From Gammaproteobacteria bacterium (lineage in GTDB: Bacteria > Pseudomonadota > Gammaproteobacteria > JABABF01): 64,000 nt of DNA. A model generated the notes under the pieces. The model had not been told where the DNA came from and ran no database searches. It saw only the letters and a list, made by a program, of their open reading frames with translations. This document shows, piece by piece, positions 2 to 17,784 of the stretch (position 1 is the stretch's first letter; each line of letters begins with the position of its first letter). The stretch is taken from assembly GCA_965205525.1 (NCBI GenBank), contig OZ242171.1, positions 89,993 through 153,992 on the forward strand. The letters are read 5' to 3'. The translations under genes were made by a program, and so were the position numbers.

Positions 2-865
2 AACTCCTTATCTGTTTACAGAGTGGATGCTGCAGAGGAGGATCTTGAAAGTGTGGGCCCCAGGCTCATGGGAGAGAATCCATTCCACATAACCGCTACC
101 GAGGAAGTACTGATTGCCAGTAATAATGTTCAAATTTCCCTTTTTCAAATAAATGAGGACGATACCATCAGCGGCCCTGTCAGCAGTCTACAAGGCTTCT
201 CACCGAACAGTGTGGCGGCCAGTCCCGCTGGCGGTCTAGTGTTTACCAACTCTGTTCTCAGTTCTTTTCTAGGAGTTTGGCAGGTGCTGGGAATCCCCCG
301 GGTGCCGGCGGGGCAGGAAGTGCGGGTGATGGTGAATGCAGAGTCGGCGCTGGACACCGCCCTGACCGTGATGGTGCAGGCGAGGCAGGGCAGCCGGGTT
401 CGCATGGCAGCGGCGACTCTGATGCCGTCAGATACTCAGGCGGAGGCCGTGTTCTCGGGGAGTGATCTGGGTCAGGGCGAGTGGATATTTTCGGCATCGG
501 TGCCGGCAGATATGGCAGATATTGTGGATGTATCGGCGGCCCGGGCGACACTGCGGATTAGCGGTCCGCTTGTCAGGCTGGAAAACCTGTCGGGCGTAAT
601 ACCAGAAGGAGCAGATCTGAATATCAGAGTGAGCACGGAGGGAATGGTTCCTGTGGCAGGGGATACGGAGGTGACCTTGCAGGCAGCGCAGGAGGGCGCT
701 CAGCCTCGGACGGCGATGGGATTATTACGGGAGGGGCAGACATCGGTCACGGTGACCTTTGCCGGCAGGGAATCCCTGATCGAGGGTGACTGGGTCTTGT
801 CAGCATCATCAATCCTGCCCACAGATGCAAATTCTACGCTTGCAGTGACCGTCGGGCCGCCTTTG
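2..865 (+). repeat. Module unit 1.0 (partial): last propeller blades (divergent, AT-richer subtype), domain A and domain B.
   Basis: It contains the near-invariant domain-A string GGTGCCGGCGGGGCAGGAAGTGCGGGTGATGGTGAATGCAGAG starting at about 301. Its VWQVLGIPRV junction is identical to that of unit 4.1. Confidence 0.8.
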
Positions 866-3800
866 ATCAGGCTGACCCTCTCGGTGGACCAGGGAGTGTC
901 ATCAGGGGAGATGAGGCTGGTCCAGACTGATACTAAACCCGGCTTGGGAACTGAAGAAGGGCTTGCTGTCAGTCCAGACGGCAGGTGGCTGCTTGCCGGC
1001 GGCATAAGCGGCAGAGGCTTCATCAGGACCTTGGAGATAGACAGCGTCAGGGGCATTGCCACCCCGGTTGAACTTTATACTGGCCTGGGAGGCCGTAGCC
1101 TGGCAGTGAGCCGAGACAGCAGTCTTGTGTTTGCATCGGATAATGCCTTTATGAGCACTATCAGTGTCTGGCGCCTGAATGCCGATGATGGCAGCCTGGA
1201 GGGAGTGGCACAGTACACAGGGGGAGGAACAGATGCTGCAGGGAACACCGTCAGAGGGCTGATTTCCACCCATGATGTCGTGCTGAGCCCGGATGACCGC
1301 CTGCTGTTTGTGACGAGCAACGGAGAGTCAAATTCAAATAATGGCGCCCTCAGTGTGTGGAGAGTAAGCCCTTCCGGCACCCTTGTTCAGACCGATGTGC
1401 ATGTCTCTGGCGGGGGTGCGGATACAGAGGGCTTGAACGCAATTGCCGGTGCCGCCGTGACCCCGGACGGCCGCCTGCTGTTTGCAGGGTCATTCTACGA
1501 TTCTGGTTTTTTAGACCACAGCACGCTCGGCATCTGGCGCGTGAATGCTGAAGCGTCTGCGGTTTCCTTTGTGAGGACTCTTTCCGACAGACGCATGCTG
1601 CGCAGGCCCCGGGTTGTGACCCTCGGCCCCTCCGGCCGTTTTCTGTTTGTGTCCAGCCAGGTTGGTGCAGATGCTGAAACAGACCCACTGTCTGTTTACG
1701 AAGTGAATGCTGCAGAGGAGAATCTTGCAAGTGTGGCCTCCTATGGCGAGGACATATCGGGGGATGCCATCGGCCTGGCCGTCACCAGAGAAGTGCTGGC
1801 AGTGGCCGAATTTACGCAGGGCAGTGTCGCTCTTTGGCAGAGAAATGATAATGGCACCCTCCGTTTTGCCAGCAGGCATGATTCAGCCAGCCCGGTTAGC
1901 CTGGCGGCCAGTCCGGCCGGCGGTCTGGTGTTTAGCAGCTCAAGCTCAAATGATGGGTCTGTCGGCATCAGCGTCTGGCGGGTGCAGGGGATCCCGCGGG
2001 TGCCGGCGGGGCAGGAAGTGCGGGTGATGGTGAATGCAGAGTCGGCGCTGGGCTCCGCCCTGACCGTGATGGTGCAGGCGAGGCAGGGCAGCCGGGTCAG
2101 CATGGCAGCGGCGACTCTGATGCCGTCAGATATTCAGGCAGAGGCCGTGTTCTCGGGGCGTGATCTGGGCCAGGGCGAGTGGATATTTTCGGCATCGGTG
2201 CCGACAGATATGGCAGATGTTGCGGATGTATCGACGGCCCGGGCGACACTGCGCATTGGCGGTCCGCTTGTCAGGCTGGAAAACCTGTCGGGTGTAATAC
2301 CAGAAGGGGCAGATCTGAATATCAGAATAAGCACGGAGGGACACCCTGTGCTGGAGGATGCAGAGGTGACCTTGCGGGCAACGCAGCAAGGCGCCCAGCC
2401 TCGGACGGTGATGGGATTATTACGGGAGGAGCAGGCAGAAGTTACGGTGACCTTTGCCGGCAGGCAATCTCTAACCGAGGGTGACTGGGTCTTGTCAGCA
2501 GAATCATCAGTTCTGTCCACAGATGAAAATTCTGGGCTTGATGTGACCGTCAGGCCGCCTTTGCCCAGGCTGACCCTCTCGGTGAACCAGGGAGTGTCTT
2601 CAGGGGAGATGAGGCTGGTCCAGACTGATGCTAACACCGGCCTTCCAGCTGGAGATAGTGAAGGGCTTGCCGTCAGTCCAGACGGCAGGTGGCTGCTTGC
2701 CAGCGGCGGCGGCCGCATCACGGTCTGGGAGATAGACAGCGTCAGGGGCATTGTCACCCAGAGAAGTACGGAAATGGGTACTGGCCTGGGAGGCCGTGGC
2801 CTGGCAGTGAGCCGAGACAGCCGTCTTGTGTTTACGTCGGATCGTGCCAGTACTAGCACTATCAGTGTCTGGCGCCTGAATGCCGATAATGGCGGACTGG
2901 AGGAAGTGGCAAAGTACACAGGGGGAGAAACAGATGCTGCAGAGAACACCGTCAGAGGGCTGACTGTCACCCATGCTGTCGTGCTGAGCCCGGATGAGCG
3001 CCTGCTGTTTGTGACGAGCAATGGGAGGCTGGACGATGAAGGAGTCCCCTTCGGCGGCGCACTCAGTGTGTGGAATGTAAACCCTTCCGGCACCCTTGTT
3101 CAGACCAATGTGCATGTCTCTGCCGGGGCTGAGGATACAGAGGGCTTGAACCAGATTGCCGGTGCCGCCGTGACCCCGGACGGCCGCCTGCTGTTTGCAG
3201 GGTCATTCCACGATTTTGGTTCATTCGACCGCAGCACGCTCGGCATCTGGCGTGTGAATGCTGAAGCGTCTACGGTTTCCTTTGTGAGGACTCGTCAAGA
3301 CACCCGCATGCTGCGCAGGCCCCGGGTTGTGACCCTCGGCCCCGCCGGCCGTTTTCTTTTTGTATCCAGCCAAGTTCTTAATGACGCTCAAATAGATCCA
3401 CTGTCTGTTTACAGAGTAAATGCTGCAGAGGAGGATCTTGTAAGTCTGGCCTCCTATGGCAATGACATAGAAGGGAGGACCATCGGCCTGGCTGCCACCA
3501 GAGAAGTGCTGGCAGTGGCCGAGGAGGATGGTGGTGGTGGTGGTGTCTCTCTTTGGCAGAGAAATAATGACGGCACCCTCCGTTTTGTTAGAAGGCATGC
3601 TTCATTCAGGCCGATTGGCCTGGCGGCCAGTCCGGCCGGCGGTCTGGTGTTTAGCAGCTCAAACGAAGGGTCTGAAGGCATCATCGTCTGGCAGGTGCAG
3701 GGAATCCCGCGGGTGCCGGCGGGACAGGAAGTGCGGGTGATGGTGAATGCAGAGCAGGCGCCGGACTCTGCCCGGACCGTGATGGTGCAGGCGAGGCAGG

Positions 3801-6583
3801 GCAGCCGGGTCAGCATGGCAGCGGCGACTCTGATGCCGTCAGACACTCAGGCGGCGGCCGTGTTCTCGGGGCGTGATCTGGGCCAGGGCGAGTGGATATT
3901 TTCGGCATCGGGGCTGACAGATACGGCAAAACTGCGCATTGGCAATCCGCTTATCAGGCTGGAAAACCTGTCGGGCAGAATACCAGAAGGGGCAGATCTG
4001 AATATCAGAATAAGCACGGAGGGACACCCTGTGCTGGAGGATGCACAGGTGACCTTGCGGGCAACGCAGGAAGGCGCTCAGCCTCGGACCGTGATGGGAT
4101 TATTACAGGAGGGGGAGACATCGGTTACGGTGACATTTGCTGGCGAAAATGCCCTGACCGGGGGAGACTGGGTCTTGTCGGCAGAATCATCAATCCTGTT
4201 CACAGATGCAAATTCTGTGCTTACAGTGACCGTTATACCGCTGCCTAAGCTGACCCTCTCGGTAGACCAGGGAGTGTCCTCGGGGGAGATGAGGCTGGTC
4301 CAGACTGATAACAAACGCCTTGCAAGTGGAACTGAAGAAGGGCTTGCTGTCAGTCCAGACGGCAGGTGGCTGCTTGCCAGCGGCGGCGGCGGCATCACGG
4401 TCTGGGAGATAGACAGCGTCAGGGGCATGGTCACCCAGAGCAGTGATCGTATGGGTGCTGGCCTGGGGGGCCGTGGCCTGGCAGTGAGCCGAGACAGCAA
4501 TTTTGTGTTTACGTCGGATGGTGCCAGTACTAGCACTATCAGTGTCTGGCGCCTGGATGCCGATGATGGCGGACTGGAGGAAGTGGCAAAGTACACAGGG
4601 GGAGGAACAGATGCTGCAGAGAACACCGTCAGAGGGCTGAGCTCTGTTTGGGATGTCGTGCTGAGCCCGGATGACCGCCTGCTGTTTGTGACGAGCGCGG
4701 GGGTGTCAGATAATGGCGCCCTCAGTGTGTGGAGTGTAAACACTTCCGGCACCCTTGTTCAGACCGATGTGCACCCTGCCGGGGATTCGAACACAGAGGG
4801 CTTGAACGCAATTGCCGGTGCCGCCGTGACCCCGGATGGCCGCCTGCTGTTTGCAGGGTCAACGCGAGACAGGAGGCTCAGCCTCTGGCGCGTGAATGCT
4901 GAAGCGTCTACGGTTTCCTTTGTGAGGACTATTCCCGACAATATCGGGCTGCGCAGGCCCCGGGTTGTGACCCTCGGCCCCGCCGGCCGTTTTCTGTTTG
5001 TGTCCAACTCGATTAATTCGAGTGACAATGATTCAGATTCACTGTCTGTTTACAAAGTGAATGCTGCAGAGGAGGATCTTACACTTGTGGACTCCTATGG
5101 CGGGTTAGGGGTTACCTTCGGCCTGGCCGTCACCAGGGAAGTGCTGGCATTGGTCTCAAGAAGTCAGAGCAATGTCACTCTTTGGCAGAGAAATGCTTCC
5201 GGCACCCTCAGTTTTGTCAGCAGGCATGCTTCAGGCAGAGCGCATGGCCTGGCGGCCAGTCCGGCCGGCGGTCTGGTGTTTAGCAGTTCAAACAGTGGGT
5301 CTGAAGGCATCAGCGTCTGGCGGGTGCAGGGAATCCCGCGGGTGCCGGCGGGGCAGGAAGTGCGGGTGATGGTGAATGCAGAGCCGACGCTGGGCTCTGC
5401 CCTGACCGTGACGGTGCAGGCGCGGCAGGGCAGCCGGGTCAGCACGGCAACGGCGACTCTGATGCCGTCAAACACTCAGGCGGAGGCCGTGTTCTCGGGG
5501 AGTGATCTGGGCCCGGGCGAGTGGATATTTTCGGCATCGGTGCCGGCAGATATGGCAGATGTTGCGGATGTATCGACGGCCCGGGCGACACTGCGCATTA
5601 GCGGTCCGCTTGTCAGTTTGGAGATGACTGGCGGAAGTGCCATCGTTGCCTCGGACGGGATGATAACGCTTATCCTGCGCGTGATGCCGGCACTATCCTC
5701 CACGGTCATGGTGACCGTGGCGGTGACCGATGAAGACAACAATACGATATCAGAGCAGCTGGAGGCTCTGTCCTCTTCCCTGCGGCTCACTTTCCGCGCC
5801 AGTGATTTGGGAACAGGCCGTCTGCGCTTTACTGCCCGGGGGCCGGCAGGAGTATTAGAAGACAGCGAAGCCGAGGTGACCGTGCTGGTGGACACTGCTG
5901 CTGGTGTCGTTCTGTCTGCAAATCCCGAGGAGGATGTCTTTCCGGGCGATGAGGTGCGCCTGTCGGCAGAAGTACTCTCCGGGTCAGACCTGGCCGGGAT
6001 AGATGTCGTGCTGGAGGTGGCAGTTGCACCTCCCGATGGAAGCACGCGCAGCAATGTCCTGATACCAGTGTCGGCTGAAACCTCTACGGGCACCCTGACC
6101 TTTATCCCGGATGCAGTGCCGGGCACTTGGAATTTCAACGTAATAGAGAGCGATGGGATAAGCGTATCTGCGACACTTACAGTGATGGTGGCGGCAGTCG
6201 TGCCCCTGCCCCTGGACTTCAATAATCCATCGGACGGGGTAAGCGCAGATGACCTGGTGCTGCTTCTGCGCTATGAGAGGCTGTGTGCGGGGGGAGATTC
6301 CCGGCCGCTGCCGGCCAATTGCTCTGCCCTCGGTTCCGAGGCACTGGCGGCTGGACTTGCCTTTGACAGTTCTTCCGACCGGCTGGCAGATCTGCAGAAT
6401 GTCCAGCTGCCGGATGTGACCGGCACCGGTATCGGCAGCGTGCAGACACTGGCCATACTGCTGCAGGCCTTGGCAAATGTCCAAGACGAATTGCTTCTTC
6501 CCGCCGCTGCTTCATCCGCCGAGGCCGAGCAGGCTCGCGATGCGCGGCTTCGCATTATCCGGCAGCTCCTGGGACGGGAATAG
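2..6583 (+). CDS. Giant secreted repeat protein, paralog 1 (5' end cut by window edge). It alternates 7-bladed lactonase/YVTN-like beta-propeller modules with Ig-like beta-sandwich domains and ends in the conserved C-terminal cassette with a dockerin-like segment.
   Basis: The frame is open from position 2: NSLSVYRVDAAEEDL matches the internal blade motif DPLSVY.VNAAEE, so the GTG at 23 is not the start. There are four propeller modules, the first partial. Their blade motifs are AVSPDGRWLL, AVSRDS.LVF, VVLSPD.RLLFVTS, AAVTPDGRLLFAGS, VVTLGP.GRFLFVS, GLA.TREVLAVAE and LAASPAGGLVFS. The stop codon is TAG at 6581-6583. An uninterrupted 6.5-kb ORF cannot arise by chance. Confidence 0.85.
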   Translation, partial: NSLSVYRVDAAEEDLESVGPRLMGENPFHITATEEVLIASNNVQISLFQINEDDTISGPVSSLQGFSPNSVAASPAGGLVFTNSVLSSFLGVWQVLGIPRVPAGQEVRVMVNAESALDTALTVMVQARQGSRVRMAAATLMPSDTQAEAVFSGSDLGQGEWIFSASVPADMADIVDVSAARATLRISGPLVRLENLSGVIPEGADLNIRVSTEGMVPVAGDTEVTLQAAQEGAQPRTAMGLLREGQTSVTVTFAGRESLIEGDWVLSASSILPTDANSTLAVTVGPPLIRLTLSVDQGVSSGEMRLVQTDTKPGLGTEEGLAVSPDGRWLLAGGISGRGFIRTLEIDSVRGIATPVELYTGLGGRSLAVSRDSSLVFASDNAFMSTISVWRLNADDGSLEGVAQYTGGGTDAAGNTVRGLISTHDVVLSPDDRLLFVTSNGESNSNNGALSVWRVSPSGTLVQTDVHVSGGGADTEGLNAIAGAAVTPDGRLLFAGSFYDSGFLDHSTLGIWRVNAEASAVSFVRTLSDRRMLRRPRVVTLGPSGRFLFVSSQVGADAETDPLSVYEVNAAEENLASVASYGEDISGDAIGLAVTREVLAVAEFTQGSVALWQRNDNGTLRFASRHDSASPVSLAASPAGGLVFSSSSSNDGSVGISVWRVQGIPRVPAGQEVRVMVNAESALGSALTVMVQARQGSRVSMAAATLMPSDIQAEAVFSGRDLGQGEWIFSASVPTDMADVADVSTARATLRIGGPLVRLENLSGVIPEGADLNIRISTEGHPVLEDAEVTLRATQQGAQPRTVMGLLREEQAEVTVTFAGRQSLTEGDWVLSAESSVLSTDENSGLDVTVRPPLPRLTLSVNQGVSSGEMRLVQTDANTGLPAGDSEGLAVSPDGRWLLASGGGRITVWEIDSVRGIVTQRSTEMGTGLGGRGLAVSRDSRLVFTSDRASTSTISVWRLNADNGGLEEVAKYTGGETDAAENTVRGLTVTHAVVLSPDERLLFVTSNGRLDDEGVPFGGALSVWNVNPSGTLVQTNVHVSAGAEDTEGLNQIAGAAVTPDGRLLFAGSFHDFGSFDRSTLGIWRVNAEASTVSFVRTRQDTRMLRRPRVVTLGPAGRFLFVSSQVLNDAQIDPLSVYRVNAAEEDLVSLASYGNDIEGRTIGLAATREVLAVAEEDGGGGGVSLWQRNNDGTLRFVRRHASFRPIGLAASPAGGLVFSSSNEGSEGIIVWQVQGIPRVPAGQEVRVMVNAEQAPDSARTVMVQARQGSRVSMAAATLMPSDTQAAAVFSGRDLGQGEWIFSASGLTDTAKLRIGNPLIRLENLSGRIPEGADLNIRISTEGHPVLEDAQVTLRATQEGAQPRTVMGLLQEGETSVTVTFAGENALTGGDWVLSAESSILFTDANSVLTVTVIPLPKLTLSVDQGVSSGEMRLVQTDNKRLASGTEEGLAVSPDGRWLLASGGGGITVWEIDSVRGMVTQSSDRMGAGLGGRGLAVSRDSNFVFTSDGASTSTISVWRLDADDGGLEEVAKYTGGGTDAAENTVRGLSSVWDVVLSPDDRLLFVTSAGVSDNGALSVWSVNTSGTLVQTDVHPAGDSNTEGLNAIAGAAVTPDGRLLFAGSTRDRRLSLWRVNAEASTVSFVRTIPDNIGLRRPRVVTLGPAGRFLFVSNSINSSDNDSDSLSVYKVNAAEEDLTLVDSYGGLGVTFGLAVTREVLALVSRSQSNVTLWQRNASGTLSFVSRHASGRAHGLAASPAGGLVFSSSNSGSEGISVWRVQGIPRVPAGQEVRVMVNAEPTLGSALTVTVQARQGSRVSTATATLMPSNTQAEAVFSGSDLGPGEWIFSASVPADMADVADVSTARATLRISGPLVSLEMTGGSAIVASDGMITLILRVMPALSSTVMVTVAVTDEDNNTISEQLEALSSSLRLTFRASDLGTGRLRFTARGPAGVLEDSEAEVTVLVDTAAGVVLSANPEEDVFPGDEVRLSAEVLSGSDLAGIDVVLEVAVAPPDGSTRSNVLIPVSAETSTGTLTFIPDAVPGTWNFNVIESDGISVSATLTVMVAAVVPLPLDFNNPSDGVSADDLVLLLRYERLCAGGDSRPLPANCSALGSEALAAGLAFDSSSDRLADLQNVQLPDVTGTGIGSVQTLAILLQALANVQDELLLPAAASSAEAEQARDARLRIIRQLLGRE
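866..2563 (+). repeat. Module unit 1.1: propeller, Ig-like domain A and Ig-like domain B (about 1.7 kb).
   Basis: The unit begins at the junction [PI]RLTLSV[DN]QGV.SGEMRLVQTD. The domain-A string recurs at about 1999. Domain B begins with GGPLVRLENLSG. Confidence 0.85.
2564..4243 (+). repeat. Module unit 1.2: propeller + A + B.
   Basis: It has the same junction (PRLTLSVNQGVSSGEMRLVQTD) and the same A and B strings. It also contains the in-frame (GGT)5 run at 3530-3544. Confidence 0.85.
4244..5599 (+). repeat. Module unit 1.3: propeller + A only; it joins directly to the 3' cassette.
   Basis: The unit starts at PKLTLSVDQG. After RATLRISGPLVS the sequence switches to LEMTGGSAIVASDG, which is the start of the 3' cassette. 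Confidence 0.8.
5600..6583 (+). repeat. Conserved 3' cassette, copy 1: two Ig-like domains, a dockerin-like double segment and a charged helical tail.
   Basis: The landmarks are LEMTGGSAIVASDGMITLILRVMPALSSTV..., LDFNNPSDGVSADDLVLLLRY, LPDVTGTGIGSVQTLAILLQAL and AEAEQARDARLRIIRQLLGRE*. The same block of about 980 nt ends all four genes. Confidence 0.9.
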
Positions 6584-6876
6584 AGAGCAGTATCTGTTCT
6601 TCATGCCCTGAAACCCACTTTGCGATCCATTTCTTGCCTGCGATACTTATAGGTGCGCCCCTTGCAAACCGGAATGGCACTAGTAACTAGTAAAGGGGGA
6701 GGGGGGGATACAATTGCCGCAAGCAGGTGACCTGCAGCCCTGCTTGGATTCCTCCTGCTGCAGCACAGTTGTTTATGTTAGATAGTCCAAAACTTGGCAT
6801 GCTGGTGCGGCAGATAAGAATAGTACTGCTGCTGCCTCTGCTGCTGCTTGCCTCTGCCTCTGTTCTGGCACAGGCG
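6584..6876 (+). repeat. Conserved 5' cassette, copy 1: intergenic leader plus signal-peptide coding region.
   Basis: The string AGAGCAGTATCTGTTCTTCATGCCCTGAAACCCACTTTGCGATCCATTTCTTGCCTGCGAT...GGAATGGCACTAGTA...G-tract...CTGCAGCCCTGC...GCTGCAGCACAG is repeated at 13174 and 17496. Confidence 0.9.
6695..6707 (+). repeat. Homopolymeric G tract G5-A-G7 in the leader of paralog 2.
   Basis: Read directly from the sequence: taaaGGGGGaGGGGGGGata. Confidence 0.95.
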
Positions 6877-9800
6877 CCCAGGCTGACCCTCTCGGTGGAC
6901 CAGGGAGTGCCCTCAGGGGAGATGAGGCTGGTCCAGACTGATGTCCACTTTTTTACAAGTGGAAGTAATGTAGGAGGGATTGCTGTCAGTCCAGACGGCA
7001 GGTGGCTGCTTGCCAGCAGCGGCAGCAGCATCACGGTCTGGGAGATAGACAGCGCCAAGGGCATTGTCACCCAGAGAAGTGCTCAATCGAGTGCTGGCCT
7101 GAGAGGCAACCTGGCAGTGAGCCGAGACAGCAGTCTTGTGTTTGCGTCGGATCGTGCCAGTAACAGCACTATCACTATCAGTGTCTGGCGCCTAAATGCC
7201 GATGATGGCGGACTGGAGGAAGTGGCAGAGTACGCAGATGGAGGTCTAGATGCTGCAGGGAACACCATCAGAGGGCTGTTTGTCACCCGTGGTTTCACGC
7301 TGAGGCTCGTGCTGAGCCCGGATGACCGCCTGCTGTTTGTGACGAGCAGAGCGGGGTCAAATAATGGCGCCCTCAGTGTGTGGAGTGTAAACCCTTCCGG
7401 CACCCTTGTTCAGACCGATGTGCATCTCTCTGCCGGGGCTTCGGATACACAGGGCTTGAACCGGATTGCCCGTGCCGCCGTGACCCCGGACGGCCGCCTG
7501 CTGTTTGCAGGGTCATTCCACGGTTCTCATTCATTTTTCAGCAGCACGCTCGGCATCTGGCGTGTGAATGCTGAAGCGTCTACGGTTTCCTTTGTGAGGA
7601 CTCTTTCCGACAGACGCATGCTGCGCAACCCCCGGATTGTGACCCTCGGCCCGGACGGCCGTTTTCTGTTTGTGTCCAACCTGATTAGAGGTGCTGAAAT
7701 AGATCCACTGTCTGTTTACGAAGTGAATGCTGCAGAGGAGAATCTTGCAAGTGTGGCCTCCTATGGCGAGGACATATCGGGGGATACCATCGGCTTGGCC
7801 GCCACCAGAGAAGTGCTGGCAGTGGCCGAAGTTGATCAGCGTAGTGTCGCTCTTTGGCAGAGAAATGATAACGGCACCCTCAGTTTTGCCAGCAGGCATG
7901 ATTCAGTCAGACCGATCCTCCTGGCGGCCAGTCCGGCCGGCGGTCTGGTGTTTAGCACCTCAAATTCACTTGATGGGCCTGACGGTATCACCGTCTGGCA
8001 GGTGCAGGGAATCCCGCGGGTGTCGGCGGGGGATGACGTGCGGGTGATGGTGAATGCAGCGCAGGCGCTGGGTTCTGCCCTGACCGTGACGGTGCAGGCG
8101 AAGCAGGGCAGCCGGGTCAGCACGGCAACGGTGACTCTGATGCCGTCAGATACTCAGGCGGCGGCCGTGTTCTCGAGGAGTGATCTGGGCCAGCTGAGCC
8201 AGCTGGGCCAGGGCGAGTGGATATTTTCGGCATCGGTGTCGGCAGATATGGCGGATATTGCGGATGTATCGGCCGCCCGGGCGACACTGCGCATTAGCGG
8301 TCCGCTTGTCAGGCTTTCAAACCTGTCGGGCGTAATACCAGCAGGAGCAGATCTGAATATCAGAGTGAGCACGGAGGGAATGGTTCCTGTGACAGGGGAT
8401 AGGGAGGTGACCCTGCAGGCAGCGCAGGAAGGCGCTCGGCCTCGGACGGTGATGGGATTATTACGGGCGGGGCAGGCAGAAGTTACGGTGACCTTTGCCA
8501 GCAGGGAATCTCTGACCGAGGGTGACTGGGTCTTGTCAGCATCATCAATCCTGTCCACAGATGAAAATTCTGTGCTTGCAGTGACCGTCGGGCCGCCTTT
8601 GACCCTCTCGGTGAACCAGGGAGTGCCCTCAGGGGAGATGATGCTGGTTCAGACTGATGCTAACACCGGCGTTGCAAGTGGAACTGGAGAAGGGATTGCT
8701 GTCAGTCCAGACGGCAGGTGGCTGCTTGCCAGCGGCGGCGGCGGCATCACGGTCTGGGAGATAGACAGCGTCAGGGGCATTGTCACCCAGAGAAGTGCTC
8801 ATACGGGTGCTGGCCTGGGAGGCCGTGGCCTGGCAGTGAGCCGAGACAGCAGTCTTGTGTTTGCGTCGGATCGTGGGTCTTCCATCAGTGTCTGGCGCCT
8901 AGGTGCTGATGATGGCAGACTGGAGGAAGCGGCAAAGTATACAGGGGGAGGAACAGATGCTGCAGGGAACACCATCAGAGGGCTGGCTAGCATTTGGGAT
9001 GTCGTGCTAAGCCCGGATGACCGCCTGCTGTTTGTGACGAGCAACAGGGTGTCAAATAATGGCACCCTCAGTGTGTGGAGTGTAAACGTTTCCGGCACCC
9101 TTGTTCAGACCGATGTGCATGTCTCTGCCGGAGCCTCGGATACAGAGGGCTTGAACCGGATTGCCGGTGCCGCTGTGACCCCGGACGGCCGCCTGCTGTT
9201 TGCAGGGTCATTCTACGATTATGGTTCATTAGACAGCAGCACACTCGGCATCTGGCGTGTGAATGCTGAAGCGTCTACGGTTTCCTTTGTGAGGACTCTT
9301 TCCGACAGACGCATGCTGCGCAGACCCCGGGTTGTGACCCTAGGCCCCTCCGGCCGTTTTCTGTTTGTGTCCAGCCAGGTTTTTAATAACGCTCAAACAG
9401 ATCCACTGTCTGTTTACAAAGTGAATGCTGCAGAGGAGAATCTTGCAAGTGTGGCCTCCTATGGCGAGGACATATCTTTGGAAACCGTCGGGCTGGCCGC
9501 CACCAGAGAAGTGCTGACAGTGGCCGAACTTGCGCGGATAAGTGTTGGCAGTAGTGTCGCTCTTTGGCAGAGAAATGCTTCCGGCACCCTCAGTTTTGTC
9601 AGCAGGCATGCTTCAGAAAGCCCGGTTGGCCTGGCGGCCAGTCCGGCCGGCGGTCTAGTGTTTTCCAACTCACGCGACGGGTTTTTCATAACCGTCTGGC
9701 AGGTGCAGGGAATCCCGCGGGTGCCAGCGGGGCAGGAAGTGCGGGTGATGGTGAATGCAGAGCAGGCGCTGGGCTCTGCCCTGACCGTGACGGTGCAGGC

Positions 9801-12800
9801 GAGGCAGGGCAGCCGGGTCAGCACGGCAACGGCGACTCTGATGCCGTCAGATACTCAGGCGGAGGCTGTGTTCTCGGGGCGTGATCTGGGCCAGGGCGAG
9901 TGGATATTTTCGGCATCGCTGCTGACAGATACGGAAAATATTGTGGATTTGCCGACAGTCCGGGCGACACTGCGCATTGGCAGTCCGCTTATCAGGCTTT
10001 CAAACCTGTCGGGGGCAATACTGCAAGGAGCAGGTCTGAATATCAAAGTGAGTACGGAGGGACACCCCGTGCTGGAGGATGCAGAGGTGACCCTGCGGGC
10101 AACGCTGCAGGAAGGCACTCAGCCTCGGGCGGTGATGGGATTATTACGGGAAGGGCAGACATCGGTTACGGTGACCTTTGCTGGCGAAAATGCCCTGACC
10201 GTGGGTGACTGGGCCTTGTCAGCAGAATCATCAATCCTGTCCACAGATACAAATTCTGTGCTTGTAGTGACCGTCGGGCCGCCTTTGCCCAGGCTGACCC
10301 TCTCCCTGCAGGAGACTGCAGAGCCAGAGGTGCCGGCAGGCAGTACTTTGGGGATTACGGTAATGGCGGATCGTCCCCTGATGCAGGACCTGACGGTGGC
10401 GGTACAGGCGGTTCGTACCGTTACAGCACCGCCGACGGTGATGACAGCAACGGTGACGACTCAGCTGTTTGCAGGAGAGGAGATGGGAAGGGTACTCTTT
10501 GAAGGGGAGAATGTACTGTCTCCGGGCCAATGGGTCCTTACGATTGCGGAGGTCCTGCCCGAGGACTCTGCCGAAGTATCCACATCCACTCAGCAGCTGC
10601 AGGTGAGGGTAGGACCATCAGCCCTTGGCCTGTCGGCGCCGATGGGTCTGTTCCAAGGGCAGGAGGCGGCGATTGAGGTAAATACGGAGGTGGCGCTGGG
10701 GGTGGAGGTGCGTGTCATGGTGACGGCAACCCATGCATCTACTCCAACCATAACGGCATCAGCCGCCGCCGTACTTGGGCCCCGCACACTTGCCGCCGAA
10801 GCGAGGTTCCCTGCGAACATGCTGAGCCTGGTGAGAGAGGGGACTTGGAATTTTGAGATTACTGCGGCGACGCCCTCTGTGCTGATGACAGATACGGAAG
10901 AGTTTCCCCTAGTGGACTTCACAGAGACGACGGTAACACTGCAAGTGACAGTGCCGAGAGAGCCGACTCTTTTCCTGGAGTTGCCGCCGCAGCCGGTGGA
11001 CCCGGCCCAGCCTGTGTCTATCCGCCTGCAGAAGAGCACGACTATAAGTGAAAGGCTGACCGTGGATATAACGGCAATGCGGCCGTTCGGCGAAAGGACA
11101 CTCACCAGCACAGCAACGGCAATGCTTTCGTCTTCTGACACAATGGCGACGGCGGTATTTGGCCCGGGAGCACTCTCTGCCGGCAGATGGACCCTGACGG
11201 CGAGTGTGAGACCGCCCGGGGCAGTGCCGGTTTTCCCTCCTACGGCAACGATGACGGTGCGCTCTCCCCTGCTTCGCCTGCAGCGGCTGGGGCCGGCTTC
11301 GGTGGCAGCGGGCACCCGGGTCGCGGTGAGGGTGGAAGCGGAGGCCATGCCGGAGGATGAGGGGCTCGGTGTGAGGGTCATCGCGCGCCAGGCGATGCGA
11401 GCGGATAGAGAGAGGAGCGCCGTGCTGGGATCTCAGTCTGATTTCTCTGCCGATGTGGAGTTCACTTCGCTGCCGCCCGGGGAATGGATGCTGACGGCGG
11501 AGGCAGAGCGGCCTGATGCATTCCGAACGGAGAATGCTCGGGACACGGTCACCGTAGAGCCCGCTGTCCTGACCCTGACCCCTGTGCTGGAAAGGGTGCC
11601 GGCAGGGGAGTCGGCGCGTCTTATCCTGGGCAGTGTCGTGCCTCTCGGCGTGGCTGTGAATCTAAATGTGGTGGCGGAGCCGGTCTCTCCGTCATTTTTG
11701 CCACAGATGACAGCTGTAAATCTGGACGCGGCTTCAACCTCCACAATAGTCGTGTATGACCCTGGCGAACTGGCTCCGGGAATATGGAATTTTAATGTGC
11801 AGGTGATGGATGCGGCTGTCCGGACGGCGGCAGATGTGTCAATGGCGACCGCGACACTGCGGATTGCTGCTCCCCTTGTCAGGCTTTCTAATCTGTCGGG
11901 CGAAATACTGCAGGGAGCAGAGCTGAATATCAGGGTGAGCACGGAGGGAATGGTTCCTGTGGCAGGGGATGCGGAGGTGACCCTGCGGGCGACGCTGCAG
12001 GAAGGCACCCAGCAGCGGACGGTGACGGGAAGATTGCTGGAGGGGCAGACATCGGTCACGGTGACCTTTGCCGGCGAAAATGCCCTCACTGAGGGTGACT
12101 GGACCGTGTCGGCGGAGACAGCATCAACGCTGCTGCAGACGGATGCAAATCTTTCTTCTCTGACAGTGATTGTCGGGCCGCCGCCCCGGCTCCTTTTGGA
12201 GCGGACTGGCGGAAGTACCCTCGTTGCCTCGGACGGGATGATAACGCTTATCCTGCGCCTGATGCCAGCACTATCCTCCACGGTCACGGTGACCGTGGCG
12301 GTGACCGATGAAGACAACAATACGATATCAGAGCAGCAGGTAGCTCTGTCCTCTTCCCTGCAGCTCACTTTCAGCGCCAGTGATTTAGGAACAGGCCACC
12401 GGCGCTTTACTGCCCGGGGGCCGGCAGGAGTATTGGAAGACAGCGGAGCCGAGGTGACCGTGCAGGTGGTCACTGTTGTTAGTGTCGTTCTGTCTGCAAA
12501 TCCCGAGGAGGATGTCTTCCCGGGCGATGAGGTGCGCCTATCGGCAGAAGTACTCTCCGGGTCAGACCCGGCCGGGATAGATGTCGTGCTGGAGGTGGCA
12601 GTTACAGCTCCCGATGGAAGCATGCGCAGCAATGTCCTGATTCCAGTGTCGGCTGAAACCTCTACGGGCACCCTGACCTTTATCCCGGATGCAGTGCCGG
12701 GCATCTGGAATTTCAACGTATTCAACGTAATAGAGAGCGATGTGATAAGCGTATCTACGACACTTATAGTGATGGTGGCGGCAGTCGTGCCCCTGCCCCT

Positions 12801-13173
12801 GGATTTCAATGATCCATCGGACGACGATGTAAGCGCAGATGACTTGGTGCTGCTTCTGCGCTATGAGAGGCTGTGTGCAGAGGGAAGTTCCCCGCCGTTG
12901 CCGGCCAGCTGCACTGACCTCGGTTCCGAGGCACTGGCGGCTGGACTTGCCCTTGAAAGTTCTCCCGACCGGCTGGCAGATCTGCAGAATGTCCGGCTGC
13001 CGGATGTGACCGGCACTGGTGTCGGCAGTGTGCAGACACTGACTATACTGCTGCAGGCCTTGGCAAATGTCCAAGACGAATTACTTCTTCCCGCCGCTGC
13101 TTCATCCGCCGAGGCCGAGCAGGCTCGCGATGCGCGGCTTCGCATTATTCGGCAGCTCCTGGGACGGGAATAG
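6775..13173 (+). CDS. Giant secreted repeat protein, paralog 2. Order: signal peptide, two propeller+Ig+Ig units, five divergent Ig-like domains, one extra Ig (B) domain, conserved C-terminal cassette.
   Basis: The signal peptide is MLDSPKLGMLVRQIRIVLLLPLLLLASASVLAQA, with cleavage predicted before PRLTLSVDQG. I placed the start at ATG 6775 because the homologous position is ATG/GTG in all three complete genes. ATG 6799 (MLVRQIR) is an alternative. No clear Shine-Dalgarno precedes either. The ORF-track start at 6727 lies in the conserved leader hairpin and was rejected. Confidence 0.8.
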   Translation: MLDSPKLGMLVRQIRIVLLLPLLLLASASVLAQAPRLTLSVDQGVPSGEMRLVQTDVHFFTSGSNVGGIAVSPDGRWLLASSGSSITVWEIDSAKGIVTQRSAQSSAGLRGNLAVSRDSSLVFASDRASNSTITISVWRLNADDGGLEEVAEYADGGLDAAGNTIRGLFVTRGFTLRLVLSPDDRLLFVTSRAGSNNGALSVWSVNPSGTLVQTDVHLSAGASDTQGLNRIARAAVTPDGRLLFAGSFHGSHSFFSSTLGIWRVNAEASTVSFVRTLSDRRMLRNPRIVTLGPDGRFLFVSNLIRGAEIDPLSVYEVNAAEENLASVASYGEDISGDTIGLAATREVLAVAEVDQRSVALWQRNDNGTLSFASRHDSVRPILLAASPAGGLVFSTSNSLDGPDGITVWQVQGIPRVSAGDDVRVMVNAAQALGSALTVTVQAKQGSRVSTATVTLMPSDTQAAAVFSRSDLGQLSQLGQGEWIFSASVSADMADIADVSAARATLRISGPLVRLSNLSGVIPAGADLNIRVSTEGMVPVTGDREVTLQAAQEGARPRTVMGLLRAGQAEVTVTFASRESLTEGDWVLSASSILSTDENSVLAVTVGPPLTLSVNQGVPSGEMMLVQTDANTGVASGTGEGIAVSPDGRWLLASGGGGITVWEIDSVRGIVTQRSAHTGAGLGGRGLAVSRDSSLVFASDRGSSISVWRLGADDGRLEEAAKYTGGGTDAAGNTIRGLASIWDVVLSPDDRLLFVTSNRVSNNGTLSVWSVNVSGTLVQTDVHVSAGASDTEGLNRIAGAAVTPDGRLLFAGSFYDYGSLDSSTLGIWRVNAEASTVSFVRTLSDRRMLRRPRVVTLGPSGRFLFVSSQVFNNAQTDPLSVYKVNAAEENLASVASYGEDISLETVGLAATREVLTVAELARISVGSSVALWQRNASGTLSFVSRHASESPVGLAASPAGGLVFSNSRDGFFITVWQVQGIPRVPAGQEVRVMVNAEQALGSALTVTVQARQGSRVSTATATLMPSDTQAEAVFSGRDLGQGEWIFSASLLTDTENIVDLPTVRATLRIGSPLIRLSNLSGAILQGAGLNIKVSTEGHPVLEDAEVTLRATLQEGTQPRAVMGLLREGQTSVTVTFAGENALTVGDWALSAESSILSTDTNSVLVVTVGPPLPRLTLSLQETAEPEVPAGSTLGITVMADRPLMQDLTVAVQAVRTVTAPPTVMTATVTTQLFAGEEMGRVLFEGENVLSPGQWVLTIAEVLPEDSAEVSTSTQQLQVRVGPSALGLSAPMGLFQGQEAAIEVNTEVALGVEVRVMVTATHASTPTITASAAAVLGPRTLAAEARFPANMLSLVREGTWNFEITAATPSVLMTDTEEFPLVDFTETTVTLQVTVPREPTLFLELPPQPVDPAQPVSIRLQKSTTISERLTVDITAMRPFGERTLTSTATAMLSSSDTMATAVFGPGALSAGRWTLTASVRPPGAVPVFPPTATMTVRSPLLRLQRLGPASVAAGTRVAVRVEAEAMPEDEGLGVRVIARQAMRADRERSAVLGSQSDFSADVEFTSLPPGEWMLTAEAERPDAFRTENARDTVTVEPAVLTLTPVLERVPAGESARLILGSVVPLGVAVNLNVVAEPVSPSFLPQMTAVNLDAASTSTIVVYDPGELAPGIWNFNVQVMDAAVRTAADVSMATATLRIAAPLVRLSNLSGEILQGAELNIRVSTEGMVPVAGDAEVTLRATLQEGTQQRTVTGRLLEGQTSVTVTFAGENALTEGDWTVSAETASTLLQTDANLSSLTVIVGPPPRLLLERTGGSTLVASDGMITLILRLMPALSSTVTVTVAVTDEDNNTISEQQVALSSSLQLTFSASDLGTGHRRFTARGPAGVLEDSGAEVTVQVVTVVSVVLSANPEEDVFPGDEVRLSAEVLSGSDPAGIDVVLEVAVTAPDGSMRSNVLIPVSAETSTGTLTFIPDAVPGIWNFNVFNVIESDVISVSTTLIVMVAAVVPLPLDFNDPSDDDVSADDLVLLLRYERLCAEGSSPPLPASCTDLGSEALAAGLALESSPDRLADLQNVRLPDVTGTGVGSVQTLTILLQALANVQDELLLPAAASSAEAEQARDARLRIIRQLLGRE
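6877..8595 (+). repeat. Module unit 2.1: propeller + A + B.
   Basis: It starts immediately after the signal-peptide AQA site with PRLTLSVDQGVPSGEMRLVQTD. Its A domain is a variant (VSAGDDVRVMVNAAQ). Confidence 0.85.
8596..10287 (+). repeat. Module unit 2.2: propeller + A + B.
   Basis: The junction is PLTLSVNQGVPSGEMMLVQTD. The A string lies at about 9720. Confidence 0.85.
10288..11865 (+). repeat. Block of five divergent Ig-like domains of about 100 aa each (E1-E5).
   Basis: The block starts PRLTLSLQETAEPEVPAGSTL. Every domain ends with the same pattern as A and B: ...G.W.L[TS]A ... [VL].V. E1 and E2 recur in paralog 4 at 25168-25839. E3-E5 occur only here. Confidence 0.7.
11866..12189 (+). 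repeat. Extra domain-B copy preceding the 3' cassette of paralog 2.
   Basis: The sequence AAPLVRLSNLSGEILQGAELNIRVSTEGMVPVAGDAEVTLRATLQEG is homologous to all other B domains. Confidence 0.8.
12190..13173 (+). repeat. Conserved 3' cassette, copy 2.
   Basis: It is homologous over its full length to 5600-6583. It carries a 9-nt tandem duplication (TTCAACGTA twice) that gives NFNVFNV. Confidence 0.9.
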
Positions 13174-13457
13174 AGAGCAGTATCTGTTCTTCATGCCCTG
13201 AAACCCACTTTGCGATCCATTTCTTGCCTGCGATCTTATAGGTGCGCTCCTTGCAAACTGGAATGGCACTAGTAAAAGGGGGGGGGGGGGAGCAAAAATA
13301 CCCGAATAAGGTGAGCTGCAGCCCTGCCTGGGTTCCTCCTGCTGCAGCACAGCCGTTTGTGTTTGACAGGCCAAAACTTGGCATGCTGGTGCGGCAGATA
13401 AGAATAGTACTGCTGCTGCCTCTGCTGCTTGCCTCTGTCTCTGTTCTGGCACAGGCG
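13174..13457 (+). repeat. Conserved 5' cassette, copy 2.
   Basis: It shares the sequence of 6584-6876. It differs in having one ACTAGTA copy instead of two, an uninterrupted G13 tract, and a divergent stretch of about 30 nt after the tract. Confidence 0.9.
13278..13290 (+). repeat. Homopolymeric G tract G13 in the leader of paralog 3.
   Basis: Read directly from the sequence: agtaaaaGGGGGGGGGGGGGagc. Confidence 0.95.
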
Positions 13458-16400
13458 CCCAGGCTGACCCTCTCGGTGGACCAGGGAGTGTCTTCGGGGG
13501 AGATGAGGCTGGTCCAGACTGATGCTAACACCGGCCTTGCAAATGGAGTTGGAGAAGGGCTTGCTGTCAGTCCAGACGGCAGGTGGCTGCTGGCCGGCGG
13601 CGGCATCGGCATCGGCATCACGGTCTGGGAGATAGACAGCGTCAGGGGCATTGTCACCCAGAGAAGTGCTCTTACGGGTAATTTCCTGGGAAGTAATGGC
13701 CTGGCAGTGAGCCGAGACAGCAGTCTTGTGTTTGCGTCGGACAGTGCCAGGGTTAGCACTATCAGTGTCTGGCGCCTGGATGCCGATAATGGCAGACTGG
13801 AGGAAGTGGCACAGTACACAGAGGGAGGAACAGATGCTGCAGGGAACACCGTCAGCGGGCTGGTTTCCACCTATGATGTCGTGCTGAGCCCGGATGACCG
13901 CCTGCTGTTTGTGACGAGCAGAGGGGAGTCAGACAGTGCCGGAGGCGCCCTCAGTGTGTGGAGTGTAAACACTTCCGGCACCCTTGTTCAGACCGATGTG
14001 CATGTCTCTGCCGGGGCTTCGGATACAGAGGGCTTGAACCGGGTTGCCGGTGCCGCCGTGACCCCGGACGGCCGCCTGCTGTTTGCAGGGTCATTCTACG
14101 GTTCTAATTCATTAGACAACAGCACGCTCGGCATCTGGCGTGTGAATGCTGAAGCGTCTGCGGTTTCCTTTGTGAGGACTCTTTCCGACGGACGCATGCT
14201 GCAGAGACCCCGGGTTGTGACCCTCGGCCCCGCCGGCCGTTTTCTGTTTGTGTCCAGCCAGGTTGCTGCAGATGCTGAAACGGATCCACTGTCTGTTTAC
14301 GGAGTAAATGCTGCAGAGGAGAGTCTGGCAAATCTGGCCTCCTATGGCGAGGACATATCGGGGAGTGCCATCGGCCTGGCCGCCACCAGAGAAGTGCTGG
14401 CAGTGGCCGAATTTGCGCAGAATGGTGTTGCTCTTTGGCAGAGAAATGCTTCCGGCACCCTCAGTTTTGTCAGCAGGCATGCTTCAGAAAGCCCGGTTGG
14501 CCTGGCGGCCAGTCCGGCCGGCGGTCTGGTGTTTAGCAGTTCAGATCTTGGGTCTGAAGGCATCAGCGTCTGGCAGGTGCAGGGAATCCCGCGGGTGCCG
14601 GCGGGGCAGGAAGTGCGGGTGGTGGTGAATGCAGAGCGGGCGCCGGGCTCTGCCCTGACCGTGATGGTGCAGGCGCGGCAGGGCAGCCGGGTTCGCATGG
14701 CAGCGGCGACTCTGATGCCTTCAGATACTCAGGCGGAGGCCGTGTTCTCAGGGAGTGATCTGGGCCAGGGCGAGTGGATATTTTCGGCATCGGTGCCGGC
14801 AGATATGGCAGATGTTGCGGATGTATCGACGGCCCGGGCGACACTGCGCATCGGCAGTCCGCTTATCAGGCTTTCAAACCTGTCGGGCGTAATACCAGAA
14901 GGAGCAGATCTGAATATCAGAATAAGCACGGAGGGACACCCCGTGCTGGAGGATGCGGAGGTGACGCTGCGGGCAGCGCAGCAAGGCACCGAGCCTCGGA
15001 CAGCGATGGGATTATTACGGGAGGGGCAGACAACGGCTACGGTGACATTTACCGGCGAAAATGCCCTGACCGGGGGAGACTGGGTCTTGTCGGCAGAATC
15101 ATCAATCCTGTTCACAGATGCAAATTCTATGCTTGCAGTGACCGTTATACCGTCTTTGACCCTCTCCCTCTCGGTGGATCAGGGAGTACCCTCAGGGGAG
15201 ATAAGGCTGGTCCAGACTGATGCTAATACCAACCTTGCAAGTGGAACTGAAGAAGGGCTTGCCGTCAGTCCAGACGGCAGGTGGCTGCTTGCCAGCGGCG
15301 GCGGCGGCATCACGGTCTGGGAGATAGACAGCGTCAGGGGCATTGTCACCTCGGTTGAAACTTATACGGGTGCTGGCCTGGGAGGCCGTGGCCTGGCAGT
15401 GAGCCGAGACAGCAGTTTTGTGTTTGCGTCGGATGGTGCCAGTACTAGCACTATCAGTGTCTGGCGCCTGGATGCCGATGATGGCGGACTAGATCCAGTG
15501 GCAGAGTACACAGGGGGAGGAACAGATGCTGCAGGGAACACCGTCAGAGGGCTGATTTCCACCCATGATGTCGTGCTGAGCCCGGATGACCGCCTGCTGT
15601 TTGTGACGAGCAGAGGGGAGTCAGACAGGGCCGGAGGCGCCCTCAGTGTGTGGAGTGTAAACATTTCCGGCACCCTTGTTCAGACCGATGTGCATGTTTC
15701 TGCCGGGGCTTTGGATACAGAGGGCTTGAACCGGGCTGCCGGTGCCGCCGTGACCCCGGACGGCAGCCTGCTGTTTGTGGGCTCATACTACGACGATCGA
15801 TTCATTGTCGGGTTCAGCACGCTCGGCATCTGGCGTGTGAATGCTGAAGCGTCTGCGGTTTCCTTTGTGAGGACTCTTACAGACCCCCGGAGGCTGCGCA
15901 GGCCCCGGTTTGTGACCCTCGGCCCGGACGGCCGTTTTCTGTTTGTGTCCAGCCAGGTTTTTAATGATGCTGCAACAGATCCACTGTCTGTTTACGGAGT
16001 GAATACTGCAGAGGAGAATCTTGCAAATCTGGCATCCTATGGCGAGGGCATATTGGGGAATACCATCGGCCTGGCTGTCACCAGAGAAGTGCTGGCAGTG
16101 GCCGAATTTAATCGGGATAATGTCGCTCTTTGGCAGAGAAATGATGACGGCACCCTCCGTTTTGTCAGCAGGCATGCTTCATTCAGGCCGATTGGCCTGG
16201 CGGCCAGTCCGGCCGGCGGTCTGGTGTTTAGCAGTTCATCCTCAGAGTCTGAAGGCATCAGCGTCTGGCAGGTGCAGGGAATCCCGCGGGTGCCGGCGGG
16301 GCAGGAAGTGCGGGTGATGGTGAATGCAGAGCAGGCGCCGGACTCTGCCCGGACCGTGATGGTGCAGGCGAGGCAGGGCAGCCGGGTCAGCATGGCAGCG

Positions 16401-17495: not shown

Positions 17496-17784
17496 AGAGC
17501 AGTATCTGTTCTTCATGCCCTGAAACCCACTTTGCGATCCATTTCTTGCCTGCGATTCTTATAGGTGCGCCCCTTGCAACCGGAATGGCACTAGTAACTA
17601 GTAAAAGGGGGAGGGGGGATACAATTGCCGCAAGCAGGTGACCTGCAGCCCTGCTTGGATTCCTCCTGCTGCAGCACAGTTGTTTATGTTAGATAGTTCA
17701 AAACTTGGCATACTGGTGCGGCAGATAAGAATAGTACTGTTGCTGCCTCTGTTGCTTGCCTCTGTCTCTGTTCTGGCACAGGCG
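17496..17784 (+). repeat. Conserved 5' cassette, copy 3.
   Basis: It is almost identical to 6584-6876. The G tract is one G shorter, and the ATG has changed to ATA at 17710-17712. Confidence 0.9.
17607..17618 (+). repeat. Homopolymeric G tract G5-A-G6 in the leader of paralog 4.
   Basis: Read directly from the sequence: gtaaaaGGGGGaGGGGGGata. Confidence 0.95.

Follow-up and report, generated by a model that had tools for sequence, protein, structure and literature searches.

Four giant genes lie head to tail on the plus strand at the start of a 64,000-nucleotide stretch of DNA (hereafter the window) from an uncultured gammaproteobacterium (contig OZ242171.1), and the proteins they encode all end in the same module. 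What kind of domain closes these proteins, and what does it do for them? A preliminary description, made from the nucleotide sequence of the window, named it a dockerin-like duplicated segment and proposed that the giants are anchored or assembled through a cohesin-like partner encoded elsewhere. The analysis reported here covers the window and the genome, which consists of one contig of 1,998,239 bp with 59% G+C and in which the window occupies positions 89993-153992. The gene content is bacterial and includes genes of proteobacterial type, among them those for glutathione synthetase, RNase R and HemN. The module is a portable tail, conserved at the protein level, that ends many different Sec-exported mosaic giants. 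As judged by profile comparisons, dockerin is its closest known relative and likely the ancestor of its two loop-helix units. With a probability of about one half, the tail is a dockerin-derived and so far unannotated C-terminal domain that serves as an attachment or assembly tag for exported giants.

A conserved C-terminal tail on exported giants

Translation of the last 200 codons of the four open reading frames (ORFs) revealed a module of 123-129 amino acids (aa) at the end of each protein. ORF 1 (positions 2-6583 of the window) is open at its 5' end in the window and encodes 2539 aa in the full genome; ORF 2 (6727-13173), ORF 3 (13242-17495) and ORF 4 (17638-26820) follow in tandem on the same plus strand. 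The tail of ORF 1 (6212-6580, 123 aa) matches the profile hidden Markov model (HMM) of the family with an E-value of 2.4e-49 and contains segment 1 (6212-6286), two Cys codons (6284 and 6320), segment 2 (6407-6472) and a terminal helix (6527-6580), which is followed directly by the stop codon (6581-6583). The same arrangement is found in ORF 2 (tail 12799-13170, 124 aa, E 7.1e-48; segment 1 12799-12876, Cys codons 12874 and 12910, segment 2 12997-13062, terminal helix 13117-13170), in ORF 3 (tail 17124-17492, 123 aa, E 6.4e-50; segment 1 17124-17198, Cys codons 17196 and 17232, segment 2 17319-17384, terminal helix 17439-17492) and in ORF 4 (tail 26431-26817, 129 aa, E 2.6e-48; segment 1 26431-26505, Cys codons 26503 and 26539, segment 2 26626-26691, terminal helix 26764-26817), all on the plus strand. 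The ORF 4 tail, which was the copy modelled with AlphaFold, carries a six-residue insertion, LPETTI (26737-26754), before the terminal helix.

In the window copies segment 1 reads L-D-F-N-[ND]-P-[SL]-D-x-V-[SN]-A-D-D-L-V-L-L-L-R-Y-E-R-L-C; the second Cys lies 11 residues after the first (RYERLC...[AS][NS]C[ST]). Segment 2 reads L-P-D-V-T-G-T-G-[IV]-G-S-V-Q-T-L-x-I-L-L-[QH]-A-L, and from there to the stop codon an LLLP motif and the terminal amphipathic helix EQARxARLRIIRQxLGRE follow. The motifs quoted in the preliminary description, the two cysteines between the segments included, are thereby recovered in all four proteins. The module had been placed at 6210-6485; its end has to be moved to 6580 because the conserved module reaches the stop codon. 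The four window copies arose recently as paralogs and are 85-99% identical, so that their agreement cannot count as independent support for conservation.

Such evidence comes from the rest of the genome and from other assemblies. A genome search combined with an iterated HMM identified 14 further tail copies outside the window, down to 33% identity (E 3.6e-72 to 1.7e-7), so that the tail occupies the extreme C-terminus of 18 ORFs of 863-7099 aa, which together make up 8.3% of the genome DNA. When the family profile was compared with 1.84 billion representative proteins, 53 matches were obtained at E<=1e-3, of which 51 are this tail; about 33 of the representative proteins that carry it come from other assemblies. 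In all 51 the tail lies 0-13 residues from the C-terminus, in host proteins of up to 7371 aa, which indicates a genuine but rare family with a strictly C-terminal position. The tail is absent from 40 relatives, three of the same family among them, and from 400 genomes sampled across the class, and a scan of Joint Genome Institute (JGI) metagenomes with the A1 query found no relatives. It is present in metagenome assemblies of the European Nucleotide Archive (ENA): on a syntenic 18-kb contig (L036), on a 480-kb contig with two tandem tail-bearing giants (L047) and on a 2.10-Mb contig with at least three tail carriers at unrelated loci. The sole locus returned by a scan of genome contigs (L023, CABVDR010000051.1, from a Ruminococcaceae metagenome-assembled genome) was rejected as a relative; it is a chance out-of-frame match to ADDLVLLLRY in an ORF that looks non-coding.

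Column statistics were derived from 58 members. Segment 1 of the family is L-D-F-[SN]-x-P-x-[DG]-G-[VI]-[ND]-A-D-D-L-V-L-[AL]-L-R-Y-L-x-L-C. It is followed by a variable loop up to the second Cys, by the motifs N-L and Y-[DR]-L-x-x-L, and by segment 2, [LV]-P-D-[VL]-[TAS]-G-[DTN]-G-x-G-[DS]-x-x-D-[IL]-x-[IL]-L-L-x-[YA]-L-[SA]-G-[VI], after which come L-L-[LF]-P and the terminal helix R-x-x-R-L-R-I-I-R-Q-L-L. The insert between the two repeats measures about 45 residues and holds the conserved Cys pair, both cysteines of which are retained in 57 of the 58 members, as fits an oxidising extracytoplasmic location. The ratio of nonsynonymous to synonymous substitution rates (dN/dS) between subfamilies is 0.2-0.45, which points to purifying selection; among recent copies the values are noisier, 0.06-1.8. 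The tail of a 5340-aa giant (genome 701649-702047) has a one-residue deletion in loop 2 (GTGDSVQIL), and its dN/dS of 0.9-1.8 relative to other close copies suggests relaxed or diversifying selection on this copy.

The carriers are exported proteins by the evidence of their N-termini. The giants of the window begin with a Sec-type signal peptide that ends in LLLPLLLLASASVLAQA, followed by PRLTLS, and nearly all tail carriers of the genome have an N-terminal hydrophobic Sec-type signal peptide. The signal peptide of ORF 2 forms one conserved unit with the leader in front of it (window 6584-6900, plus strand). The leader recurs almost unchanged in front of ORFs 1, 3 and 4 and of five giants elsewhere, which gives nine genes; the copies lie at 6584-6900, 13174-13480 and 17496-17800 in the window and at genome positions 88895, 717732, 739305, 763037, 780260 and 1299418. 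In these nine genes the leader of about 300 nt and the signal-peptide coding region are 78-100% conserved. ACTAGTA repeats and a G-run that varies in length are found in the leader, which no non-giant gene of the genome carries. Leader and Sec signal peptide on the tail carriers imply that the tail-bearing proteins leave the cytoplasm.

Between signal peptide and tail the window giants consist of repeated lactonase-type seven-bladed propellers (PF10282, E 1.4e-27) and immunoglobulin-like (Ig-like) repeats. Stop-to-stop frames that reach 1500 aa or more number 22 in the genome and cover 12.7% of its 2.0 Mb. The largest giant, with 10,095 aa, contains orphan beta-sandwich repeats of about 110 aa each that match no Pfam family.

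Similarity of the tail to dockerins

The pairing of dockerin and cohesin is the textbook principle of cellulosome assembly; dockerin-like modules outside the cellulosome are poorly understood. The tail resembles dockerins weakly and specifically. PF00404 (Dockerin_1) was the only Pfam family matched repeatedly, by 2 of 15 members and then by 7 of 43 (counted at E<0.1), with a best E of 4.9e-5; the match of the foreign member P0053 extends over positions 8-56 of the PF00404 profile. Among the eight best matches of the family profile in the PDB, six are dockerins, originating from four proteins (4fl4_A, 6kgc/6kg9/6kge, 2ccl_B, 2y3n_B), and the remaining two are the EF-hand-like region of autotaxin. 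In the best match, the dockerin of a Clostridium thermocellum GH9 enzyme (4fl4_A), both repeats align colinearly: GKVNSTDLTLLKRYV.

The search of 1.84e9 representatives yielded two non-family proteins at E<=1e-3. P0060 (E 9e-5), the only credible outsider, is a true dockerin protein in which Pfam recognises four Dockerin_1 modules (E 4.5e-41). It also matches EF-hand_7 and EF-hand_1; the EF-hand profiles (EF-hand_1/6/7) matched none of the 43 tail members at E<0.1. The other protein, P0061, is a DUF7507 repeat protein and was set aside as a probably compositional match. A dockerin reference profile was built from 104 non-redundant modules collected from relatives of P0060. With hhalign, the alignment of 58 tails matched these 104 modules at P 2e-4 and a probability of 46%; tail columns 11-95 fall on dockerin columns 10-66, such that the repeats pair in order and the insert is skipped. 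Against a profile of the four-module dockerin the probability was 68%. Segments 1 and 2 are mutually related as well: they share the helix register V8-[ND]9-x-x-D12-L13-x-x-L-x-R18-Y19-L20, in which hhalign aligns them with a probability of 81%.

A second tail, designated type B to distinguish it from the type A tail described so far, ends the giants of 10095, 6578, 5663 and 3698 aa, which lie outside the window (genome 455674-511527 and 743179-780128). Its repeats, NADLSGDGxFxxxDVILMTRALL and, about 45 residues apart from it, ADISGNGVLDAVDAVFLLRNL, match PF00404 weakly (E 0.006) and align with dockerins at an hhalign probability of 66%. Types A and B are alike in their C-terminal position, in their two dockerin-like loop-helix repeats with a separation of about 45 residues, and in that the leader query matches two of the four type B giants, leader and signal peptide included. 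Type B differs in its more canonical loops, in the location of the Cys pair after repeat 2 instead of between the repeats, and in a C-terminal extension, ...PPVLPP...SRWEI; the Cys pair and this extension occur in three of the four type B tails. The two types are weakly alignable with each other (hhalign probability 10-30%). A genome-wide search with PF00404 gave four sub-threshold matches, three in type B tails and one in a type A paralog (genome 511156-511479, 21.1 bits). The 18 type A carriers and the four type B giants together occupy 12.2% of the genome.

Structure prediction depended on the diversity of the alignment. From 15 in-genome paralogs AlphaFold gave an unusable model with a mean predicted local distance difference test score (pLDDT) of 48. 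From 43 diverse members it gave an all-helical model of six helices with a pLDDT of 74.9 and a predicted template modelling score (pTM) of 0.71. Helix 15-29 comes right after loop 1, helices 37-48 and 58-64 belong to the insert, helix 79-90 comes right after loop 2, and helices 95-98 and 111-129 complete the chain. In both repeats of the model, loop is followed by helix, as in dockerins. The terminal helix is predicted with confidence (block-mean pLDDT 88-89 over residues 111-130) and is packed into the fold in the model. In a 2840-aa giant (genome 1799440-1807959) both loop-helix segments are missing, yet there remain a Cys pair, LEQCEEGTC, and, as ...ARLRILQRLLSR, the terminal helix, which may form a unit separable from the rest.

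The likeness to dockerins (PF00404; 4fl4_A; the Xyn10B dockerin 2ccl_B) lies in the two tandem loop-helix or F-hand repeats of about 22 residues, evident in hhalign and in the AlphaFold helices, in the helix motif V-[ND]-x-x-D-L-x-L-L-x-R-Y-L, which stands in equal register in tail and dockerin, and in the sequence G-[IV]-x-x-x-L-x-P after the last tail helix, which recalls the clasp region of dockerins (for dockerin clasp and stability see PMC3821032). The C-terminal position on secreted modular proteins and the many carriers per genome are further shared features. Dockerins differ in being compact modules of 60-70 aa with a short linker, whereas the tail measures 123-129 aa, typically about 125, owing to the insert of about 45 residues with its Cys pair and two extra helices and to an added terminal helix of 20 residues. 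Loop 1 of the tail is longer by one residue and contains a Pro, and loop 2 has Gly at position 8.

Several results weigh against a dockerin-derived attachment tag. The four window copies have no Pfam match at E<=10, dockerin and EF-hand families included, so that the HMM check foreseen in the preliminary description turned out negative for the very proteins for which it was suggested; the last 199 aa of ORF 1 and ORF 4 likewise matched no NCBIfam family at E<=10. The paralogs that respond to PF00404 score singly 21.1, 19.3 and about 17 bits, below the gathering score of 22.9, the PDB matches are each non-significant when taken singly (E 0.15-0.85), and the hhalign probability for dockerins does not rise above 46-68%. 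A Foldseek search of 350,542 PDB chains with the model gave a best E of 2 and no dockerin, although small helical modules with large inserts are hard cases for this method. The loops depart from the calcium-binding pattern as well. Loop 2 of the window copies, D-V-T-G-T-G-x-G-S-V-Q-T (DVTGTGVGSVQT), has T5, S9 and T12, which bears out the earlier remark that the second repeat lacks several acidic ligands; its position 8 is Gly and not Ile or Val. Loop 1 has one extra residue (13-residue spacing) and Pro at a would-be ligand position, so that the window copies do not have oxygen-bearing ligands at positions 1, 3, 5, 9 and 12 of both repeats. PF00963, the cohesin family, has no match at E<=1 in the complete 2.0-Mb genome, in which 12 candidates were scored; at the sequence level this contradicts the proposal of a cohesin partner encoded elsewhere. 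Hidden cohesins among the beta-sandwich repeats, both in the 10095-aa giant and in the window proteins, were considered and dismissed, as these repeats too gave no cohesin match at E<=1. Crude gene calls around 12 giant loci and an all-against-all BLAST revealed neither a conserved neighbouring gene that could encode a partner nor a recurring small secreted neighbour, and five loci in other assemblies showed none either.

The module is thus not a member of PF00404 as curated. Each single piece of the similarity is weak, and every weak signal obtained at the family level points to dockerin. Because the profile evidence is specific to dockerin and the segments are related to each other, "dockerin-like duplicated segment" is a fair description; a type I dockerin that binds a cohesin encoded elsewhere would go beyond this evidence. 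The family consensus of repeat 2 comes closer to an EF-type loop than do the window copies: it has 12 residues with D1, T/S3, D/N5, G6, D/S/N9 and D12, and the paralog at genome 1344082-1344453 has the canonical loop DLTGNGTGDVDD. Calcium binding is predicted from such loops, and the disulfide from the paired cysteines; in the window subfamily, whose second loop is degenerate, the putative disulfide and the extra helix probably make up in part for stabilisation by calcium.

Dockerin-like modules on large non-cellulosomal surface proteins are a known phenomenon, and Peer et al. (2009) reportedly surveyed such modules in Gram-negative bacteria and archaea. The genomes concerned often have no obvious cohesin, and the modules are normally recognised by PF00404. 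The tails of the window giants resemble them in their occurrence on large non-cellulolytic surface proteins and differ in that PF00404 does not see them and in their insert, disulfide pair and extra helix. A literature search on dockerins in sponge or gammaproteobacterial symbionts brought up nothing relevant.

What the tail may do for the giants

In the reading that we prefer, a domain of about 125 aa would have been derived from the dockerin fold, that is, from paired F-hand or EF-hand-like loop-helix units. Repeat 1 (LDFxxPxxGV[ND]ADDLVLxLRYLxLC) and repeat 2 (LPD[VL]TG[DNT]GxGxxxD[IL]xxLLxxLxG[IV]xxxLLxP) would be parted by the insert of about 45 residues, presumably braced by the Cys-Cys pair, and an amphipathic helix would end the protein. 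As a portable tag for protein-protein attachment or assembly, the tail would act outside the cytoplasm and hold many giant cargos on one shared cell-surface partner, or tie them together, in a manner comparable to dockerins; the partner would not be a recognisable Pfam cohesin. We infer both the homology to dockerin and the attachment function. What is new is an unannotated, structurally elaborated dockerin-like variant of very narrow distribution that has undergone an unusual expansion in a small genome, about 12% of whose DNA encodes secreted giants with one or the other of two divergent dockerin-like tails at their ends. Should it turn out to be a binding module, the tail would represent a new family beyond the current domain databases, would point to a non-cohesin receptor and would offer a handle on how an uncultured bacterium with a reduced genome builds and varies its surface. 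A disulfide-stabilised and possibly calcium-independent dockerin derivative could also serve as a part for protein assembly.

A more far-reaching version of the attachment reading is doubtful and is put forward tentatively. According to it, the types A and B would be the address tags of a cohesin-independent system for surface display or self-assembly that plugs about two dozen mosaic giants of propellers and Ig-like repeats, 12% of the present genome, onto a non-cohesin receptor to form a variable protein coat. Such a system would be confined to a small clade of uncultured Gammaproteobacteria with genomes of about 2 Mb, and its tag would be a derivative of the dockerin fold that is braced by a disulfide and partly independent of calcium. 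Its receptor might be a lipoprotein with Sel1 repeats (genome 606244-607839 encodes one), a different envelope protein, a surface glycan or the giants' own beta-sandwich repeats.

An attachment tag is not the only role that a C-terminal module of this kind might have. It could be a lineage-specific sorting or export tag read by a secretion or surface-attachment machinery, with the type II secretion system of the genome or an outer-membrane factor as candidates, and the dockerin likeness would then reflect nothing but an EF-hand-like loop. One extreme C-terminal module on 18 cargos of a single genome is the classic signature of such tags, known from the C-terminal domain (CTD) of the type IX secretion system (T9SS) and from CTERM signals, and proteins with a Sec signal must still cross the outer membrane in a cell that does possess a type II secretion operon. 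The narrow lineage (no tail in the 40 relatives or the 400 class genomes) and the failure to find a cohesin or a dockerin fold match are in line with it. The tail, however, is helical and soluble, neither a beta-sandwich nor a transmembrane segment plus basic residues as in T9SS CTD, PEP-CTERM and GlyGly-CTERM domains, with which it shares the principle of one tag for many secreted cargos; it has no hydrophobic transmembrane stretch or basic tail of the CTERM type, and no NCBIfam sorting-signal model matched it at E<=10, models of the LPXTG type included. For type II secretion substrates, no use of a linear C-terminal domain is known. As the weak similarities all lead to dockerins and none to sorting domains, and as the giant genes have no dedicated machinery gene linked to them, we consider a sorting tag unlikely.

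A structural cap or oligomerisation module, in which a disulfide-braced helical bundle with its terminal amphipathic helix ends and stabilises the Ig-like stalk or bundles the giants without a separate receptor, would explain why no partner was found and would suit the compact six-helix model (pTM 0.71) with its confident, packed terminal helix and the conserved Cys pair. The 2840-aa giant that retained only a Cys pair and the terminal helix suggests a role of its own for this helix. Such a cap is nevertheless improbable: it fails to explain why two interchangeable dockerin-like tails, A and B, occur on similar mosaics with the same leader, and the terminal helix comprises only about 20 residues. 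A last alternative places the effect at the DNA level. The 3' cassette of about 980 nt in seven genes and the 5' leader of about 300 nt in nine could serve as homology arms for gene conversion or cassette shuffling, with protein function being secondary; the shuffling of internal repeat modules between giants and a dN/dS of 0.4-1.4 among recent copies would agree with this. Yet the protein family can be recognised at identities as low as about 30%, at which no DNA identity is left, the dN/dS between subfamilies is 0.2-0.45, Cys, Asp and hydrophobic positions are invariant, and the domain occurs in other genomes at unrelated loci. This deep conservation of the protein largely refutes homology arms as the sole explanation, which makes them very improbable in that role; the near-identity of the four window copies may be due to recombination, which leaves the existence of the domain unexplained. 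Weighed against these alternatives, the dockerin-derived attachment tag retains our preference.

Mosaic genes and neighbours of the giants

Comparison of the last 1500 nt of ORF 4 with the genome by blastn delimited a 3' cassette of about 980 nt (window 25844-26820, plus strand) that encodes two Ig-like beta-sandwich domains and the tail. Seven giant genes share this cassette as one block, 85-94% identical in DNA and with a single 5' breakpoint; its counterparts in the window lie at 5619-6592, 12197-13182 and 16537-17504. Other giants, those of type B included, contain the modules that lie further upstream, of about 530 and 270 nt, in differing orders. The shared cassette and the reordered modules show that the giant genes are mosaics, probably homogenised by gene conversion. 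The six-residue indel in front of the terminal helix, LPETTI in ORF 4 and APETTI in the copy at genome position 717945, separates two tail alleles and is also found at 701649 and 1299479. Which copies carry it bears no relation to the order of the genes, a pattern compatible with recombination between distant loci.

The genome carries its type II secretion operon, which includes pseudopilin-type ORFs, at about 536-545 kb. An acidic lipoprotein encoded after it (532287-533594) was considered as a partner of the tail and discarded, as it has no similarity to Pfam families or PDB structures.

The only recurrent neighbours at the 12 giant loci are pairs of resistance-nodulation-division (RND) pump genes and Sel1-repeat genes. 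RND-pump-like pairs, identified by eye only, adjoin giants at 1000978-1005464 and 1791221-1795794; each combines an inner-membrane protein (about 1100 aa) with a periplasmic adaptor (about 460 aa), and identity between the loci is 40%. Their adjacency to the giants is probably coincidental. The link to the Sel1 genes may offer a clue to the partner but may be coincidental as well, since Sel1 proteins are common in relatives that have no tail and hence give no co-occurrence signal. All 26 Sel1 repeats of the genome are contained in four ORFs (606244-609950 and 1798661-1799605) that abut the 3' ends, and thereby the tails, of two giants, those at 610112 and 1799440. Three of the Sel1 ORFs are convergent with the giant at 610112 and end 162 bp from its stop codon; the fourth has the same orientation as the giant at 1799440 and starts about 30 bp downstream of it. 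One Sel1 protein, of 532 aa, has the lipoprotein-like signal LLGGAAC.

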